Origin: Bacteroidaceae bacterium
GTDB lineage: Bacteria; Bacteroidota; Bacteroidia; Bacteroidales; Bacteroidaceae
Direction: 5' to 3'
Assembly (NCBI GenBank): GCA_016280855.1
Contig: JAEEHP010000105.1
Span: 19,100-83,099 of the forward strand
DNA length: 64,000 nucleotides
How positions within the stretch are numbered: the stretch's first letter is position 1; each line of letters starts with the position of its first letter. The position numbers and the translations under genes were made by a program. The notes beneath the pieces were generated by a model that was given only the letters and a program-made list of their open reading frames with translations, was not told the origin of the DNA and made no database searches. Shown here piece after piece: positions 3,726 through 62,776 of this stretch.

Positions 3726-3741
3726 CTATATATTATTCAAC

Positions 3742-3796
3742 TTTCAACTTTAGCTTCACTGACTTTCAACTTTAGCTTCGCTGACTTTCGTCACGA
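3742..3796. repeat. tandem array, about 2.5 x 22 bp (TTTCAACTTTAGCTTCRCTGAC)
   Basis: Units at 3742 and 3764, with a partial unit at 3786. Confidence 0.85.
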
Positions 3797-7227: not shown

Positions 7228-7315
7228 TACACGTCTATACGTATCGGCTTACACGTCTATACGTATCAGTCTACACGTCTATACGTATCAGCCTACACGT
7301 CCATACGCGTTTCAC
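7228..7315. repeat. tandem array, 4 x 22 bp (TACACGTCTATACGTATCRGYC)
   Basis: Units at 7228, 7250, 7272 and 7294 (the last one degenerate). It lies between a minus-strand TAnnTTTG box (7320-7327) and the rlmN start (7167). Confidence 0.9.
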
Positions 7316-7522: not shown

Positions 7523-7597
7523 GGTGACTATAGTTCAGTTGGTTAGAGCGTCAGATTGTGGTTCTGAATGTCGTGGGTTCGAGTCCCACTAGTCACC
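7523..7597 (+). tRNA. tRNA-His (anticodon GTG)
   Basis: Hand-folded cloverleaf: encoded G-1, acceptor GTGACTA/TAGTCAC, D arm GTTC..GAGC, anticodon stem TCAGA/TCTGA with loop TTGTGGT, T arm GTGGG-TTCGAGT-CCCAC, discriminator C. Confidence 0.9.
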
Positions 7598-17352: not shown

Positions 17353-17442
17353 TACCCTCGGCACCCGATTTCCGGGCTTCGCCGAGGGCATTTTTGTGAT
17401 GCAATGTGTATTTTTGCATGTTATAAAAGATCAGCGAAGCTC

Positions 17443-17530
17443 ACCAAGGTTCTCCAAGCGAAATACCAAGGTTTTCCAGCCGAAACACCAAGGTGTTCCA
17501 AGCGTAACACCAAGGTGTTCCAACTTACCC
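17443..17530. repeat. tandem array, 4 x 22 bp (ACCAAGGTKYTCCARSCGAAAY)
   Basis: The ACCAAGGT anchor occurs at 17443, 17465, 17487 and 17509. Confidence 0.9.
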
Positions 17531-17532
17531 AC

Positions 17533-17664
17533 CTATGTTCTCGAGCTGACTCGCCTATGTATTCGAGCTGACTCGCCTATGTATTCGAGCTGACTCGCCT
17601 ATGCCTTCGAGCTGACTCGCCTATTCCTTCGAGCCGTCCCGGTTATACCTTCGAGCAGTCCCAC
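17533..17664. repeat. tandem array, 6 x 22 bp (CTATGYMTTCGAGCTGACTCGC)
   Basis: The TCGAGC anchor occurs at 17541, 17563, 17585, 17607, 17629 and 17651. The last two units are degenerate. Confidence 0.9.
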
Positions 17665-34418: not shown

Positions 34419-34506
34419 CACACGTATAGACGTAGGAGGTCACACGTATAGACGTAGGAGGTCACACGTATAGACGTAGAGCCTTGCACGTATAGACGTC
34501 GAAGGC
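34419..34506. repeat. tandem array, 4 x 22 bp (CACACGTATAGACGTAGGAGGT)
   Basis: Units at 34419, 34441, 34463 and 34485. The core ACGTATAGACGT is the reverse complement of the core of the 7228-7315 array. Confidence 0.9.
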
Positions 34507-34542: not shown

Positions 34543-34921
34543 CTTCGGGGAAAGCTTATATGGAGCGGGGGAAGTAGGAAAGTAAGAAAGTAGGAAAGTA
34601 GACATTAAGGGTTTTCGGGGGCGCGAATCAGCATCAACAACGGCAGGGTGCAGTAATTTTCAGAGGACGACTAGAAGCAGCATATATCACTATATATTTA
34701 TATGAATAATAATAATTATAAAGGAATAATTATATGGTTATATATAATACTAATATTATAAAGTTATTATTATATAATACTATTATTATTAAATAATTAT
34801 ATAATAAATATTATACTCGTTTCCCTGTTTTGTGTATGTTCCCTTCTGTGGAGCAAAAATGCTTAATGTCTACTTTCCTACTTTCCTACTTTCTTACTTT
34901 TCTGCCTTCAGCTTTCCGAAG
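34543..34921. repeat. composite inverted-repeat element with an extreme A/T core
   Basis: Left arm 34543-34609 (CTTCGGGGAAAGCT...GAAGTAGGAAAGTAAGAAAGTAGGAAAGTAGACATTAAG) pairs with right arm 34862-34921 (CTTAATGTCTACTTTCCTACTTTCCTACTTTCTTACTTT...AGCTTTCCGAAG). The core 34682-34817 is almost pure A/T. Confidence 0.85.
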
Positions 34922-53752: not shown

Positions 53753-53766
53753 TAATCGCAGCCTTC

Positions 53767-53795
53767 ATCATTCATCATTCTTTTATTCTTCATTC
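53767..53795. repeat. 29-bp inverted repeat, left copy (ATCATTCATCATTCTTTTATTCTTCATTC)
   Basis: Perfect reverse complement of 54893-54921. It lies just 3' of the M48 gene stop (53804). Confidence 0.9.
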
Positions 53796-53803
53796 TTCAT
53801 TCT

Positions 53804-54391
53804 TCAATAGCTATCGTCTTCGTCTTCGTCTTCCTCTTCCTCCTGCATTTGGCAGATGCGTCGCGTCTCCTTGCGCGCTTCGCGCCAGCTTGGGTAGAAG
53901 TGGTCCATGAGGGCGTGGAAGCGCGCATTGTGGCTGGGTTCGAGGAGATGGCAGAGCTCGTGGACGACGATGTGTTCGACGCACCACTCCGGCAACAGGA
54001 GGACGTAGGCTGAGAAGTAGATGCTACGGTCCTTCACGTTGCATTGTCCCCATCGCGAGATGGTCGGTTTGTAATAGACGATGCTCGGCTGCACGCCCAT
54101 CGCCTGTGCGTGGCGCGCCACCATCGGTTCCACCAATGCCTTGAGCCTGCGTAGTGCCTCGTCGGCCTGCTGGCGTGTGGAGAGAGGCAGTTGGTCGAAG
54201 AAGGCTGCGCGCTGGCGCTGTCGTGCCAGGGTGTTCTGTCTGGCTTGCTCAATCCATACGCGATTCTCCTCGATGAAGGCCATCACTCTGTCTCGCGGCG
54301 TGCCGAGGGGTGCCGACACGTGTACGTCGCCGTTCTTCACGATGCGCATGGACAGTCGGCTCGTGCGCCTGTAGGTGATCTGTATGCTCAT
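53804..54391 (-). CDS. M48-family metallopeptidase (YgjP/DUF45-like)
   Basis: Start at MSIQITYRRTSRLSMRI. Zinc motif HELCHLLEPSHN and an acidic tail. The upstream part of ORF 53804..54574 overlaps the nitroreductase gene and is rejected. Confidence 0.75.
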   Translation of the reverse strand: MSIQITYRRTSRLSMRIVKNGDVHVSAPLGTPRDRVMAFIEENRVWIEQARQNTLARQRQRAAFFDQLPLSTRQQADEALRRLKALVEPMVARHAQAMGVQPSIVYYKPTISRWGQCNVKDRSIYFSAYVLLLPEWCVEHIVVHELCHLLEPSHNARFHALMDHFYPSWREARKETRRICQMQEEEEDEDEDDSY

Positions 54392-54888
54392 GCCGAGAGT
54401 ATTTCGCCGATGGGCTTGCGCTTCTTCTGGCGTGGCTCGTCGGCAGGGTAGCCTATGGGGATGACGACGGCGGGTTCCTCGTCCGCGGGCAGGGCAAAGC
54501 GTTCCTTCAGCAGGGCGGCATCGAAGTTGCACACCCAGCAGGTGCCCAGGCCTTGCTCCGTGGCGGCCAGGCATAGGTGCTCAACGGCGATGGCGACGTC
54601 GATGTCGCCGTGGTGCTTGCCGTCGGCTCGCACCCATTCCTCGTCGTGCAGCACGGAGGCGATGATGTACAAGGGAGCGGTCTTGAACCACTCGCGGTCG
54701 TAGCATTCCTGCAGCTTGGCCTTGTCGGCCGGCTCGCTGATGAGGTGGAAGCGCCAGGGCTGTTTGTTAACGGCCGACGGCGCCAGGCGCACGCACTCCA
54801 TGACGTACGCTATCTTCTCTTGCTCCACGCCGAGCGGTTGGTAGGTCCGGCAGCTGTATCTACGCTGGATTAAATCTAAAAGGGACAT
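54388..54888 (-). CDS. nitroreductase family protein
   Basis: Start at MSLLDLIQRRYSCRTYQ. ...APSAVNKQPW... is the nitroreductase pattern. Its stop overlaps the M48 start (ATGA). Confidence 0.8.
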   Translation of the reverse strand: MSLLDLIQRRYSCRTYQPLGVEQEKIAYVMECVRLAPSAVNKQPWRFHLISEPADKAKLQECYDREWFKTAPLYIIASVLHDEEWVRADGKHHGDIDVAIAVEHLCLAATEQGLGTCWVCNFDAALLKERFALPADEEPAVVIPIGYPADEPRQKKRKPIGEILSA

Positions 54889-54892
54889 AAAT

Positions 54893-54921
54893 GAATGAAG
54901 AATAAAAGAATGATGAATGAT
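54893..54921. repeat. 29-bp inverted repeat, right copy
   Basis: Plus strand reads GAATGAAGAATAAAAGAATGATGAATGAT, the reverse complement of 53767-53795. It lies between the promoter box (54929-54936) and the nitroreductase ATG (54888). Confidence 0.9.
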
Positions 54922-59406: not shown

Positions 59407-59639
59407 TACTTCGGCTGCAAGCACAGTCGGTACTCGCTGGGCGATAGGCCGAGGTGCTTGGTGCAGTAGCGGCTGAAGTAGGAGAGGGAGGTGAAATGCA
59501 TGCGGTCGGCTATCTGGGTGAGCGACAGACGTTCGTCATCCAGATAGCTTTTTATTATAGGTATGGTGTGGCGGTCGATGTAGGAGGTGACGCTGTGCCC
59601 CGTGACGCGCTTGATGGTGGTATGACTGTATGCAGACCG
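59407..59639 (-). pseudogene. AraC-family regulator, C-terminal HTH fragment only (5'-truncated)
   Basis: Hand translation of the minus strand gives ...TTIKRVTGHSVTSYIDRHTIPIIKSYLDDERLSLTQIADRMHFTSLSYFSRYCTKHLGLSPSEYRLCLQPK*. There is no upstream ORF or start, and the frame ends in the GAACGAAC repeat arm. Confidence 0.7.
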
Positions 59640-59907
59640 AACAGCGAACGAACGAACAGTTGTTTGTGTTCGGTTATGAAGGGCGACTAATTGTTCAATA
59701 ATATATATTATATATAATATATATTATTGGCTTATCCATCCGATGACATTTCTATTTGTTCGCTTCTATTTGTTCGCTGTTCGTTCGTTCGCTGTTCGTT
59801 CGTTCGCTGTTCGGGTAAGGGTGAAGGAGCAGGCGAACATCAAAACGGCAAGCAACGAACGAACGAACAACGAACGGAACAACGAGCAACGAACGAACGG
59901 AACGTGG
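59637..59907. repeat. composite inverted-repeat element with a perfect 34-bp A/T palindrome
   Basis: Arm CCGAACAGCGAACGAACGAACAG (59637-59659) has an exact reverse complement at 59792-59814. The palindrome CAATAATATATATTATATATAATATATATTATTG lies at 59696-59729. A third, same-sense GAACGAAC-rich arm lies at 59851-59904. Confidence 0.9.
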
Positions 59908-60201: not shown

Positions 60202-61095
60202 CTATTTCCCCAGGAACTCGCTGGGAGTGAGGCCCGTAGTTCGCTTGAAGAGGCGAGTGAAATGATGGGGATAGTCGAAGCCGAGCAGCTGGGAGGTCTC
60301 GCTGATGTTGTGGCCGTTCATCAGCAGGCTCTTGGCTTGGTTGATGACGTATTTGTGGATATAGCCGATGGCTGTGCCGCCCGTGGTTTTTTTAATGATG
60401 TCGCCGAAGTAACGGGCGGAATAGGCCAGCTCGGAGGCGCAATAGGCTACGGTTGGCAGACCGCGCGTCAGCTGTCGGTTCTCGCGGAAATAGGTCTGCA
60501 GCAGGTTGTGGAAGCGTTTCAGAAGGTCGTTGGCACCTTTGTCCTCTTCGGAGAGCTGGCGCTGGTAGATGCGGTTGCAGTATTCGAGGATTAGGCGCAG
60601 ATAACCGAGCAGGATGTTCCTCAGCGATGGCGAATCGTCGTGTGCGATGAGTTCCTCTCTCATTTGTGCCACCAACTGTGTGATGCTGATCCATTCGTCG
60701 GGCTCCATCCGCAGCGAGTCCGCGAAGAAATACGAGAAGAACTGGTAGCGGTCGATCTGACGTTCCAGCTCATTGCCGTGCAGCAGTTCGGGTGACCACA
60801 TCAGCACCCATCCGCTGAGCGAGATGCGTTCGTCGTTGTCCTCCAGTCCGCCTATCTGTCCCGGCTCCACGGCGATGATGGAGCCGTCGCTCGCCTGCAG
60901 CGTCTTCATGCCGTAGGAGAGATCCTTGGGGAACTGCCGCTGGATGAACAGGCCATAGACGCCGTAGTTGTTCAGGCTATGACGAAAGGGCTGCAGCTCA
61001 TCGTAGTGAATGATGCAGACCAGCGGGTGCAGCACAGGCGCTTCCACGAACCGTGCGTAGTCGTTGGGGTTGTTAACTCTCAGAATCTTCTTCAT
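60202..61095 (-). CDS. AraC family transcriptional regulator
   Basis: 297 aa with an N-terminal cupin-like sensor and a C-terminal double HTH (...AYSARYFGDIIKKTTGGTAIGYI...LGFDYPHHFTRLFKRTTGLTPSEF). Confidence 0.85.
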   Translation of the reverse strand: MKKILRVNNPNDYARFVEAPVLHPLVCIIHYDELQPFRHSLNNYGVYGLFIQRQFPKDLSYGMKTLQASDGSIIAVEPGQIGGLEDNDERISLSGWVLMWSPELLHGNELERQIDRYQFFSYFFADSLRMEPDEWISITQLVAQMREELIAHDDSPSLRNILLGYLRLILEYCNRIYQRQLSEEDKGANDLLKRFHNLLQTYFRENRQLTRGLPTVAYCASELAYSARYFGDIIKKTTGGTAIGYIHKYVINQAKSLLMNGHNISETSQLLGFDYPHHFTRLFKRTTGLTPSEFLGK

Positions 61096-61102
61096 TGCGC
61101 GG

Positions 61103-61110
61103 CAAAGGTA
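61103..61110 (-). promoter_or_regulatory. -7 promoter box TACCTTTG 7 nt from the araC ATG (leaderless-type arrangement)
   Basis: Plus strand reads CAAAGGTA at 61103-61110; the start codon (CAT) is at 61093-61095. Confidence 0.45.
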
Positions 61111-61193
61111 AGAATAATTTATGATTGATGAATGATGAATGATGAAGTTTTTGTTTTTCTGAGACGTTTTGATTGCGATTCGGAAATAATCTT

Positions 61194-61201
61194 TACCTTT
61201 G
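61194..61201 (+). promoter_or_regulatory. -7 promoter box TACCTTTG (HUH-protein gene)
   Basis: TAnnTTTG match about 85 nt upstream of the ATG at 61286. Confidence 0.45.
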
Positions 61202-61285
61202 CAGACCGCAACGAGAAAAACAAGCCCTTTGTTATTTCAAAACGGCATTTCAATGTGGAATAAATAATTATATAGCATTGTGAAT

Positions 61286-62623
61286 ATGATGAGATCAGAC
61301 GGAGCGATGGACGAAAAGGAGAGAAAGTTGCAGGAGAAGCTGCGGTTCGCGGGCGAGAAGGTGCCTTCGATGAAGCGCCGGTCGGACCTTAACGACTACT
61401 ACGGGCGACATATCTACATGGTTACTATGGCTGTGGAGGGGCGTCGGTCGTTGCTGGGGCGGCTGGTGGGCGACGTGAAGGCTGGGTGCGATGGGGAGGA
61501 AGCACCGCGTGTGGTGCCGACGGCGTTGGGGCAGGAGGTGACGCGCTGTTGGGAGCTGATTCCTCATTTCCATCCGGAAGTGCGCCTGCTGGCTTTCCAG
61601 CTGATGCCCGACCACCTGCATGGCATCCTTTTTGTGCAAAAGGCTATGGAGGAACATCTGGGACAAGTGATCAGCGGCTTCAAGGCTGGGTGCAATAAGG
61701 CTTACAGGCGGATAGTGGGGGGAGTTGAGGCGGTGCCTCAACATACAAATAATGGTGCACCCCAACCGGCGGGTGCGTCCCAACCGGCAGGTATGCCTCA
61801 ACCAGCGGGTGCGCCTCAACCGGCAGGTGCACCTCGACAGGCAGGTGCGTCTCAACTCGCGTGTGCGCCTCAACCGGCAGGTACGGGGTTGCTTTCAGCG
61901 TATGAAGTGGCACCGCCACTTCCACTCCCTTCCGAGCATCGGCTGAAGAAGGATGACAGGGCCCATGGGCTGCTGTTTGAGCGCGGGTATAATGACCTGA
62001 TATCGAAGAGCTACGATATGCTGCCTCGCCTGACGGCCTACCTGCGCGACAACCCGCGCCGCCTGTGGCTGAAGAGCCGGCACCCAGATCTCTTCCGCCT
62101 GCACCGCCGCACGGAAGCCGCAGGCCTGCTGTTCACCTCCCTCGGCAATCATTTCCTGCTTGCCTGGCCCGAGGGGCAGGAGGTGGAATTGTCGCGTAGC
62201 GCTTCGAGCGCGCAGGTGCAGGGGCGGCTGCTGGCGGCGCTGGCGGCGGCTCACAATGGTGCGGTGACTTACACCGCCGCCATCAGCGAGGGCGAGAAGC
62301 TCATTGCCCGCACACTGCGCGAGCAGGGCTATCCGCTGGTGGTGCTTCTCAATGATGGTTTCCCCAAGGAGGGCTCGCCGCACGAACGCTACTACAAGCC
62401 CGGAGGCGTCTATTTCGAGGCGTGTTGCAGAGGACGGCTCCTGCTGCTGGAACCCGCCGAGCAGTCGTTCCTCGATGCCGGCATACGCGCGGCTGTCGAA
62501 GAGACCCTGCGTCGCAAGGCTGAGGCACGCCATTGGGCCTACACACCCATCCCCGTGACAAGCCAGCGTTATAGGTTCGTGGCGCTCAATGAGATGGCGA
62601 AGCGGTTGGCACAAGGCGAATAA
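61286..62623 (+). CDS. HUH/Y1 (IS200-like, RAYT-like) domain protein with internal (PQPAGA)7 repeat and unassigned C-terminal extension
   Basis: GRHIYMVTMAVEGRR; LMPDHLHGILFV (HUH); ISGFKAGCNKAYRR; LLFERGYNDLISKSYDMLPRLTAYLRDNPRRLW (Tyr motif region). The ORF track starts at GTG 61280; ATGs occur at 61286, 61289 and 61307. Confidence 0.6.
   Translation: MMRSDGAMDEKERKLQEKLRFAGEKVPSMKRRSDLNDYYGRHIYMVTMAVEGRRSLLGRLVGDVKAGCDGEEAPRVVPTALGQEVTRCWELIPHFHPEVRLLAFQLMPDHLHGILFVQKAMEEHLGQVISGFKAGCNKAYRRIVGGVEAVPQHTNNGAPQPAGASQPAGMPQPAGAPQPAGAPRQAGASQLACAPQPAGTGLLSAYEVAPPLPLPSEHRLKKDDRAHGLLFERGYNDLISKSYDMLPRLTAYLRDNPRRLWLKSRHPDLFRLHRRTEAAGLLFTSLGNHFLLAWPEGQEVELSRSASSAQVQGRLLAALAAAHNGAVTYTAAISEGEKLIARTLREQGYPLVVLLNDGFPKEGSPHERYYKPGGVYFEACCRGRLLLLEPAEQSFLDAGIRAAVEETLRRKAEARHWAYTPIPVTSQRYRFVALNEMAKRLAQGE
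61763..61888 (+). repeat. coding tandem repeat, 7 x 18 bp (CAACCGGCRGGTGCRCCT; PQPAGA)
   Basis: Units at 61763, 61781, 61799, 61817, 61835, 61853 and 61871, in frame within the HUH-protein gene. Confidence 0.9.
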
Positions 62624-62776
62624 AAGCTGCATTCTTGCGGCCGAGACGTTTCCGGCTGTCATGTAAGTGTTATTATTAGCCTAATAATGGTATTTATTTG
62701 ATGCTTTTTAATCGTTATCTGCGAATTTGGTATATAATCAGCCAATATATGTAACACCTATTTAGAAAGGAGTGCG

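Follow-up and report, generated by a model that had tools for sequence, protein, structure and literature searches.

The window analysed here is a stretch of 64,000 nucleotides from a Bacteroidaceae bacterium (contig JAEEHP010000105.1). The subject of this report is one open reading frame (ORF) within it, which encodes a fusion of an N-terminal HUH module to a C-terminal DprA-like module, and which carries an in-frame repeat bounded by hairpins inside the first of these. RAYTs, the enzymes that the N-terminal module resembles, are Y1 HUH tyrosine nucleases and strand-transferases associated with repetitive extragenic palindromes (REPs). The features of the gene are as follows, in amino acids (aa) where residues are given, with the evidence for each.

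61286..62623, + strand: ORF of the HUH-DprA-like fusion, 445 aa from the ATG at 61286
61391..61723, + strand: first part of the predicted Y1 HUH domain (residues about 36-146, beta1 to alphaC); AlphaFold2 (AF2), Foldseek, conservation
61613-61621, + strand: HUH triad H110-L111-H112; PDHxH invariant
61724..61742, + strand: hairpin A, GTTGAGG-CGGTG-CCTCAAC, 5′ boundary of the in-frame cassette; covariation
61754..61882, + strand: 18-bp x 7.2 in-frame tandem array, (PQPAGA)n; Tandem Repeats Finder, 74% matches, score 139
61904..61922, + strand: hairpin B, GAAGTGG-CACCG-CCACTTC, 3′ boundary of the cassette; covariation
61949..62080, + strand: second part of the predicted Y1 HUH domain (beta4 and Tyr helix); F-E/W-Q motif in LLFERGYNDLI, Tyr in AYLRDNPRRL
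62039-62041, + strand: predicted catalytic Tyr, Y252; invariant, RAYT-type motif
62063..62620, + strand: predicted DprA-like Rossmannoid domain (residues 260-445, 186 aa); AF2, Foldseek, profile search

Two alternative starts are available, GTG 61280, which would give 447 aa, and ATG 61307; as many homologues begin at the position equivalent to the latter (MDEKERKLQ), ATG 61307 may be the true start. The motifs quoted in the original prediction, made from the letters of the window alone, are all present in the ORF: GRHIYMVTMAVEGRR, LMPDHLHGILFV (H110, H112), ISGFKAGCNKAYRR and LLFERGYNDLISKSYDMLPRLTAYLRDNPRRLW.

The original prediction of an N-terminal Y1 HUH module of the RAYT kind is borne out by conservation, by family profiles and by fold. 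In an alignment of 21 diverse homologues, PDHxH (H110, H112), Y252, N256, P257, R258, R259 and L260 are invariant, and PDHxH and Y252 are also invariant in a second alignment (A7). AF2 models the HUH part with predicted local distance difference test (pLDDT) values of 80-93, and Foldseek places this model on the TnpA proteins of IS608, ISDra2 and Sulfolobus with a probability of 1.00 and on E. coli RAYT (4er8) with 0.96. An HUH profile searched against the PDB finds ISDra2 TnpA at E 1.6e-4, with the Y252 helix aligned on the Tyr-bearing C-terminal helix of that enzyme. With the full protein, a Pfam search gives no match and the NCBIfam model REP_Tyr_transpos (NF047646) only a weak one (E 1.8e-4, 21.4 bits; equivalog cut-off 80). 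Once the linker that separates the two parts of the domain is excised, REP_Tyr_transpos is matched by 15 of 15 members (best E 2e-12; window protein 6.4e-8, 32.6 bits) and the Pfam family Y1_Tnp (PF01797) by 14 of the 15 at E <= 0.1 (best 1.4e-6). These matches have scores that stay below the curated cut-offs; the module is not, therefore, filed as an equivalog of the known RAYTs, and the sub-cut-off match to PF01797 marks it as a distant relative. The RAYT motif set, [DN]HxH, W-Q/W-E ahead of beta4 and YIxxNP at the catalytic Tyr, is present as PDHLH, LLFERGY (IWQQ in the N1 types described below) and AYLRDNP. DHLH, F-E or W-Q, and Y-L-x-D-N-P constitute the RAYT class-2 signature, with 'YIxxNP' (Quentin et al. 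2018, PMC6006769, Table 1), and this agreement identifies Y252, rather than Y235, as the predicted catalytic Tyr. Y235, in ERGYND, had been considered and was rejected in favour of Y252, which is invariant and lies in the RAYT YxxxNP motif. By its motifs and modelled fold, the N-terminal module is a distant but genuine RAYT-like Y1 HUH domain.

The C-terminal domain begins right after the Tyr helix and runs to the C-terminus, limits that leave SAM and winged-helix accessory domains absent. Its AF2 model, from a 47-sequence alignment, has a pLDDT of 95.8 and a predicted template modelling (pTM) score of 0.90. The best 14 matches to this model in the PDB are all ShosA or DprA (Foldseek probability 0.84-1.00, query template modelling score TMq 0.40-0.48, best E 5e-4), and those that follow have a probability of <= 0.21. 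H. pylori DprA provides the three best matches to a C-domain profile searched against the PDB (E 0.07), with GNxxLLxxPxxxVxCSR...GAVxVS placed on H. pylori DprA GDTKLLDTPLKVAIIGTRR...GAVIVSG. Four basic residues, R304 (62195-62197), R342, K371 and R428, are invariant in the alignment of 21 homologues. When the profile is aligned to H. pylori DprA, R304, the Arg of CSR, falls on the first Arg of GTRR, which we take to contact single-stranded DNA (ssDNA) in DprA. Binding of ssDNA is documented for both DprA and ShosA (PMC11961720). At the level of sequence families, none of the 47 diverse C-domains matches any Pfam family, and none matches PF02481 (DNA_processg_A) at E <= 1. A fold search of the domain in BFVD returned nothing significant, with weak SLOG-, TIR- and DprA-like matches only, and hhalign of the C-domain profile against a single E. 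coli Smf sequence, a template without alignment depth, gave a probability of 1.4% in a shifted register. Structure prediction, fold search and profile concur that the C-terminal module is a divergent DprA-like Rossmannoid domain without SAM and winged-helix accessories, which bears out the earlier guess, made by eye, of a Rossmann/DprA/SLOG-like domain.

The fusion and the repeat insert had been treated as atypical features of a unique protein; both prove to be family-wide traits. The family comprises at least the 3,932 clusters at 90% identity that a homologue search gave (E <= 0.001), and a search with the C domain (residues 260-445) found 491 clusters among 1.84 billion representatives at 50% identity. 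In these representatives, the C domain is nearly always C-terminal in proteins of 330-450 aa, so that the HUH-DprA-like fusion is the rule, and a free-standing C domain was not seen among the 150 representatives listed. The carriers are mostly metagenome-assembled genomes (MAGs) of rumen Prevotellaceae and Bacteroidales, with Xylanibacter brevis ATCC 19188 and Prevotella sp. E13-17 as cultured members, and the database names are "hypothetical protein" (RefSeq) and "RayT" (IMG). The family was not found by tblastn in phage and plasmid collections. Its neighbourhoods are syntenic within lineages, as in the order HflX, family gene, fumarate hydratase, and differ between them, and orthologous positions are shared across species; when the neighbourhoods of 79 loci were clustered, no operon partner proved to be conserved, and even the commonest real neighbour was present at only 16 of 80 loci. 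Several MAGs have two or three paralogues, and a few family copies are pseudogenes. The family is chromosomal and non-mobile.

Among the HUH modules, types N1 (38 loci), N2 (12, with that of the window among them) and N5 (19) can be told apart; these are mutually 25-38% identical, whereas the long C2 module is ~69% identical across types. The window N module is 80% identical to that of locus L003, whose C module is only 35% identical, and the window C module is 85% identical to that of L008, whose N module is only 35% identical (L and P numbers designate loci and proteins in our collection). By this comparison of sequences, the window protein is a recombinant that joins an N2-type HUH to an N1-type C module, with the junction at or near the boundary between DNPRRL and W. 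Ongoing gene conversion between paralogues of one genome was considered and rejected, C-domain identity being 0.69-0.71 within genomes versus 0.69 across them. The window subtype also has a helical insertion of 25-30 aa in the C domain (LRRKAEARH...). Long N-terminal extensions are present in P0068 (536 aa) and P0157 (1082 aa), one with FtsK-gamma (PF09397) and the other of ~800 aa, some segments of which are rich in repeats; they may be genuine fusions or the product of read-through in gene calling.

The 18-bp repeat that the original prediction had located between the HUH and Tyr motifs is confirmed; the span given for it, 61763-61888, differs from ours by a slight shift of register. It occupies the alphaC-beta4 loop, and residues 147-219 are disordered in the AF2 model. 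Its 18-nt units (GGTGCGCCTCAACCGGCA) copy the loop and 3′ arm of hairpin A (GGTG[CG]CCTCAAC), and, as the loops of A and B are reverse complements, hairpin B is an inverted relative of A. Both hairpins are supported by covariation. For hairpin A, 97.4% of the cells in an alignment of 11 homologues are paired and two pairs have 3-4 compensatory types; for hairpin B, pairing is 100% in 9 homologues and two pairs have compensatory changes. In neither case did any of 500 shuffles reach the score, and slid controls gave 38-75% pairing. Stem variants of hairpin A include GCAGAGG/CCTCTGC, GGCGAGG/CCTCGCC, GCGGAGG/CCTCCGC and GCTGAGG/CCTCAGC, and B is likewise variable. These compensatory changes alter amino acids in the disordered loop (V..Q, A..L, G..R) and, being non-synonymous there, point to a constraint that acts on the nucleic acid.

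The array is a variable-number tandem repeat (VNTR) whose length differs between strains, a point that the original prediction had raised, with 2, 3, 6 or 7 units in alleles that have at least 90% protein identity to the window. In N2 genes, the spacers from A to B are 29, 53, 71, 77, 89, 101, 143 and 161 nt, all 2 mod 3, and minimal cassettes (A, 29 nt, B) persist without an array. When the region is folded as ssDNA, the A region pairs with the B region (z = -2.4), as in a REPIN. REPINs and bacterial interspersed mosaic elements (BIMEs) are paired inverted REP hairpins that are mobilised by RAYTs. Exact matches to hairpin A number 32 in 241 million metagenome records; 30 of them occupy this position in N2-type genes, and the remaining two are no more than chance would give. 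No further copy of hairpin A or B is present in the 64-kb window, and in 1.35 Mb of family loci they occur only inside N2-type genes. The (PQPAGA)7 insert is thus a hairpin-bounded, REPIN-like DNA cassette. One weak match in PHROGs, on the low-complexity linker, was treated as spurious. Distant members of the family (P0169, P0192, P0213, P0263, P0265) have other low-complexity or tandem inserts in the same loop, such as Ala/Thr-rich tracts of >100 aa, and in some of them a further insert separates the Tyr helix from the DprA-like domain.

The other HUH types have hairpins of their own. N1-type genes carry, at the same protein position, a covarying hairpin, CAGCGGCG-AGAA-CGCCGCTG, and their units repeat its loop and 3′ arm together with GAGTGCACGG. 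Roughly half of the 79 loci have in-frame tandem repeats at the insert position, and their periods, 15-45 nt, are always divisible by 3. Genes of two other kinds also contain the N1 cassette (CAGCGGCGAGAACGCCGCTGGAGTGCACGG...) in frame. One, at a distance of 2 kb, is an AlkD-like gene for DNA-alkylation repair, in which the cassette is translated in another frame (RTPLECTE...); the second is UvrA-like. Such use of a different frame in another gene marks the cassette as a DNA-level element. The AlkD-like orthologue of another MAG (L064) lacks the cassette, and a scan of viral contigs for the cassette core gave no match. The N1 cassettes in DNA-repair genes are at L008:6664-6820, L019:15772-15840, L015:6070-6131 and L020:12780-12850, and the number of units differs between L008 and L019.

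N5-type proteins (about 340 aa) have no insert, the linker being a single residue. Their genes have, on both sides, purine-rich arrays of a TGCGGAT-GAA-ATCCGCA hairpin in the same orientation, an organization that is REPtron-like. None of the 49 matches to this hairpin motif in the 1.35 Mb is more than about 800 nt away from an N5 gene, and hairpin density is 4.5/kb near N5 genes versus 0.84/kb far from them. Flanking hairpins of the REPtron type are confined to the N5 subtype and are not found at the window gene, at other N2 genes or at N1 genes; there, 7-bp hairpins in the flanks are at ~2x background, as expected for intergenic DNA. The hairpin differs from one HUH type to the next, so that the type of hairpin follows that of the HUH module. 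Co-evolution of RAYTs with their REPs has been reported (PMC8266576, PMC6006769). N5 arrays are located at L064:9390-9740 and L064:10960-11190, and also at L079, L063, L066, L071, L072 and L075; the upstream array of L064 appears to interrupt a Vsr gene.

The original prediction had linked the enzyme to the many intergenic repeats of the window as the elements that it might process. This link is not supported, as the repeats belong to no single family and there is no excess in their density or structure. They are heterogeneous: some are heptamer arrays, some have a 22-nt period, and others are simple arrays inverted about an AT-rich core. Across the 79 loci, tandem-repeat density does not differ between intergenic regions adjacent to a family gene (1.87/kb) and other intergenic regions (1.96/kb), and a minimum free energy test of the flanks (50-nt windows, 77 loci) found them not more structured than background. 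With equal densities near and far, the high intergenic repeat load looks like a property of these genomes rather than of the locus. The cognate hairpins of the enzyme, which the original prediction had not noticed, likely lie inside its gene, where they bracket the repeat.

Arrays with a ~22-nt period number 24 versus about 12.5 expected, an excess noted post hoc in a count that includes mis-assigned gene-internal repeats. In the window, such intergenic arrays are located at 7228-7307, 34419-34499, 17442-17656 and 3740-3789, their units often with a short palindrome, and those at 7228 and 34419 are mutual reverse complements; similar arrays occur in L003, L014, L023, L028, L045, L063 and L070. 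Inverted arrays surround very AT-rich cores at 59635-59905 and 34572-34900, and consist of (GAACG)n/(CGTTC)n and AAGTAGGA/CTACTTTC. The truncated gene that had been noticed beside the first of these (59637-59907) is what remains of the C-terminal part of an AraC gene, and lies at about 59415-59640 on the minus strand. An ATGAATG heptamer array at 61121-61146 separates the divergent AraC promoter from that of the fusion gene, and is complementary to arrays ~7 kb upstream (53763-53806, 54887-54921) that form a perfect 29-nt inverted pair (53767/54893). A tRNA gene at 7524-7597 is the sole Rfam match at gathering score in the window.

Two features flank the ORF:

61194..61201, + strand: Bacteroidetes-type -7 promoter box TACCTTTG (TAnnTTTG), read directly from the sequence, ~85 nt 5′ of the ATG
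62659..62701, no strand assigned: imperfect AT-rich palindrome 3′ of the stop codon, 71% complementary (I2); homology with the rearranged relative L080 stops at 62701

By its match to the consensus, the TACCTTTG box is a putative promoter of the fusion gene, as had been proposed, and similar CGTACCTTTGCA boxes (motif family D8) precede other genes of the window. The palindrome may be a weak terminator. The upstream neighbour is a divergent AraC-family gene and the downstream one is flavodoxin/cyclophilin-like; both neighbours have promoter boxes of this kind, so that the fusion gene looks monocistronic. As the original description of a solitary gene had it, no TnpB-like partner, insertion sequence (IS) ends or strong flanking hairpins were found around it. 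At locus L001 (rumen MAG Bacteroidaceae bacterium Tb.RUG.375), identity to the window is 99% over the gene. One relative, 96% identical across 5.9 kb, keeps the synteny of the window; in a second, homology is kept from 61136 to 62701 and the AraC gene beside it is deleted. The shared synteny, and the end of homology beside the deleted AraC gene, indicate local rearrangement and not transposition. In L080:3716-3866, compared with window 60204-61135, the upstream AraC gene has lost ~780 bp (window 60355-61135) and survives as a 3′ remnant, and protein identity is 90%.

DNA-repair genes are located 1-3 genes from N1-type members and include those for AlkZ-related (PF24741; 10 loci), NUDIX MutT-like (8), Vsr (4) and AlkD-like (4) proteins. 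They were seen at L008, L011, L019, L024, L046, L051 and L052, and also at L021, L038, L040 and L064. Their presence may reflect the inherited synteny of one clade, not a functional link.

We consider it probable that the gene encodes a domesticated chromosomal ssDNA enzyme of the RAYT class, in which an HUH domain is fused to a divergent DprA-like domain and acts on cognate hairpins. The HUH module would recognise these hairpins when they are extruded in ssDNA, for example in the lagging-strand template, and, by analogy with IS200/IS605 TnpA and E. coli RAYT, would cleave and rejoin DNA at the hairpin foot through a 5′-phosphotyrosyl link to Y252. The single strand next to the hairpin would be held by the DprA-like module, which may also bring in RecA and so link nicking to repair or recombination. 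With several copies of the 3′ arm present, alternative hairpins with the single 5′ arm would be possible, and slippage, enzyme-assisted or simple, would then expand or contract the array in multiples of 18 nt.

Several points weigh against this interpretation. The covariation derives from few independent stem variants in related sequences, and the stems could persist without selection through templated quasi-palindrome mutation. Ordinary slippage during replication accounts for the VNTR with no enzyme involved. In the genome sample the N2 hairpins show no dispersal, and their metagenome matches are gene-internal; a REP-like population for N2 would be either absent or too diverged for an exact-match scan. 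The matches to curated models remain under their cut-offs (32.6 bits versus 80 for NF047646; 15.9 versus 23 for PF01797), and the likeness to DprA is at the level of fold only (TM 0.40-0.48; PF02481 matched by none of the 47 members), which leaves room for a SLOG-type ligand-sensing role of the C domain. Enzymatic activity of family members, on hairpins or otherwise, is a prediction from sequences and models.

An alternative that we regard as possible, if rather unlikely, keeps the domesticated HUH-DprA-like enzyme and places its real substrates elsewhere, in intermediates of replication or repair, in incoming ssDNA or in dispersed hairpins that have diverged. The cassette would then be a tolerated insertion in a surface loop, its hairpins kept by quasi-palindrome templating and its array drifting by slippage. 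This accords with the disorder of the linker, with its absence from the N5 type (1 residue), which makes it dispensable for the fold, and with a tandem-repeat density that is much alike in the linker and in the intergenic DNA of the genomes concerned; RAYT genes with in-frame REP insertions have likewise been interpreted as having acquired neutral peripheral extensions (PMC6006769). It accounts less well for compensatory non-synonymous changes that keep the stems paired down to about 65% N-domain identity, for the tracking of HUH type by hairpin type, or for the persistence of minimal cassettes (A, 29 nt, B) without an array.

A role in anti-phage or anti-plasmid defence, in which a DprA/ShosA-like sensor of foreign ssDNA or of a trigger of the single-strand-binding-protein (SSB) type would direct an HUH nuclease effector, appears distinctly improbable. 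ShosA, the best structural match to the C domain, is the antitoxin encoded beside the phosphoribosyltransferase (PRTase) toxin ShosT in the ShosTA defence system, and such a role would agree with the presence of several paralogues in one genome, the fast divergence of the N modules, the swapping of modules and the hypervariable segments. PADLOC, however, gives no match, the PRTase toxin partner is absent from the window and from the 79 loci, and neither a conserved partner gene nor the setting of a defence island is seen, the neighbours being housekeeping and DNA-repair genes in stable synteny. That the gene is an active IS200/IS605-like IS, or a recent relic of one, encoding its own transposase is very improbable: the Y1 HUH fold and motifs, the same-orientation hairpin arrays on both sides of the N5 relatives and the few pseudogene copies would fit, but there is no TnpB, no subterminal hairpin at the window gene and no identical multi-copy set (the window has a single copy), the relative that is 96% identical across 5.9 kb keeps synteny and orthologous positions are common to several species, plasmids and phages lack the family, and the Tyr motif is of the RAYT type (YxxxNP), not the IS200 type (Y-x3-Q).

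The reading that we favour, a hairpin-directed ssDNA enzyme, can be extended, tentatively and with little confidence, to the proposal that HUH-DprA-like fusions are an unrecognised RAYT-derived class of Prevotellaceae that couples hairpin nicking to RecA-type recombination and that seeds and resizes in-frame cassettes of a hairpin plus half-hairpins, including those in its own gene and in DNA-repair genes (AlkD-like, UvrA-like). If so, the fusion would be an enzyme-driven generator of protein-coding VNTRs whose cognate elements are not intergenic REPs. How RAYTs benefit their hosts is a long-standing open question, and the fusion family offers a testable hypothesis, namely that the nicking of hairpins is linked with the capture of a single strand or the loading of RecA. 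Three HUH types and three hairpin types provide matched pairs for studies of specificity, and possibly for engineering of sequence-specific ssDNA tools. The cassette also illustrates that a seemingly proteinaceous low-complexity linker can be a structured element at the DNA level. As members are named "hypothetical protein" or RayT and match no Pfam domain, the finding would improve the annotation of thousands of genes from rumen and gut Bacteroidales.

Among known systems, the closest are the RAYTs (TnpA_REP; E. coli RayT, PDB 4ER8), which share with the family the Y1 HUH fold and the motif set DHxH, W-Q/F-E and YxxxNP, a chromosomal, low-copy state without TnpB, co-variation of enzyme type with hairpin type, in-frame hairpin-containing insertions between the HUH and Tyr motifs and, for the N5 subtype, flanks like those of a REPtron. 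The family differs in scoring far under the NCBIfam equivalog cut-off and in its DprA-like domain, which has been reported for no RAYT subclass. The hairpins of the window type are gene-internal and no flanking or dispersed REP population was found for it; the insert carries an expanding tandem array of half-hairpins, and several paralogous types with swapped modules coexist in one genome. The TnpA proteins of IS200/IS605 elements (IS608, ISDra2) are the best structural and PDB-profile matches, with the HUH triad and Tyr helix aligned, and a single-strand, hairpin-guided mechanism is presumed for the family by analogy with them. TnpA is, however, a single-domain protein of about 130-150 aa with a Y-x3-Q motif, features that the family does not have, and the IS elements have subterminal end hairpins, often tnpB, and multiple near-identical copies, none of which the family has.

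With DprA/Smf (PF02481) and ShosA, the C-terminal domain shares a Rossmannoid fold, G-x-x-L-L ... [GC]-[ST]-R and G-A-V-x-V-S elements that align with H. pylori DprA, and invariant basic residues, DprA and ShosA being themselves ssDNA-binding proteins. It has no Pfam-level match (TM 0.40-0.48) and neither SAM nor winged-helix domains, and in the window subtype it has the helical insertion. Unlike ShosTA, the family genes have no ShosT gene for a PRTase toxin beside them and no PADLOC match.

The resemblance to REPINs and BIMEs lies in two short inverted palindromes able to pair with each other, in the association with a RAYT-like gene and in a sequence that co-varies with enzyme type. The elements of the family differ in their very low copy number, with the gene-internal copy only for N2 and few nearby genic copies for N1, in being in frame within coding DNA and in having as spacer a tandem array derived from one hairpin arm. 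The full-text literature searched (DprA with HUH, IS200 or transposase; RAYT with Prevotella or Bacteroidales), of which coverage was incomplete, contained no description of an HUH-DprA-like architecture. What is new in this family, relative to these systems, is the fusion to a DprA-like domain, the tandem array of half-hairpins and the location of low-copy cognate hairpins inside the gene itself.

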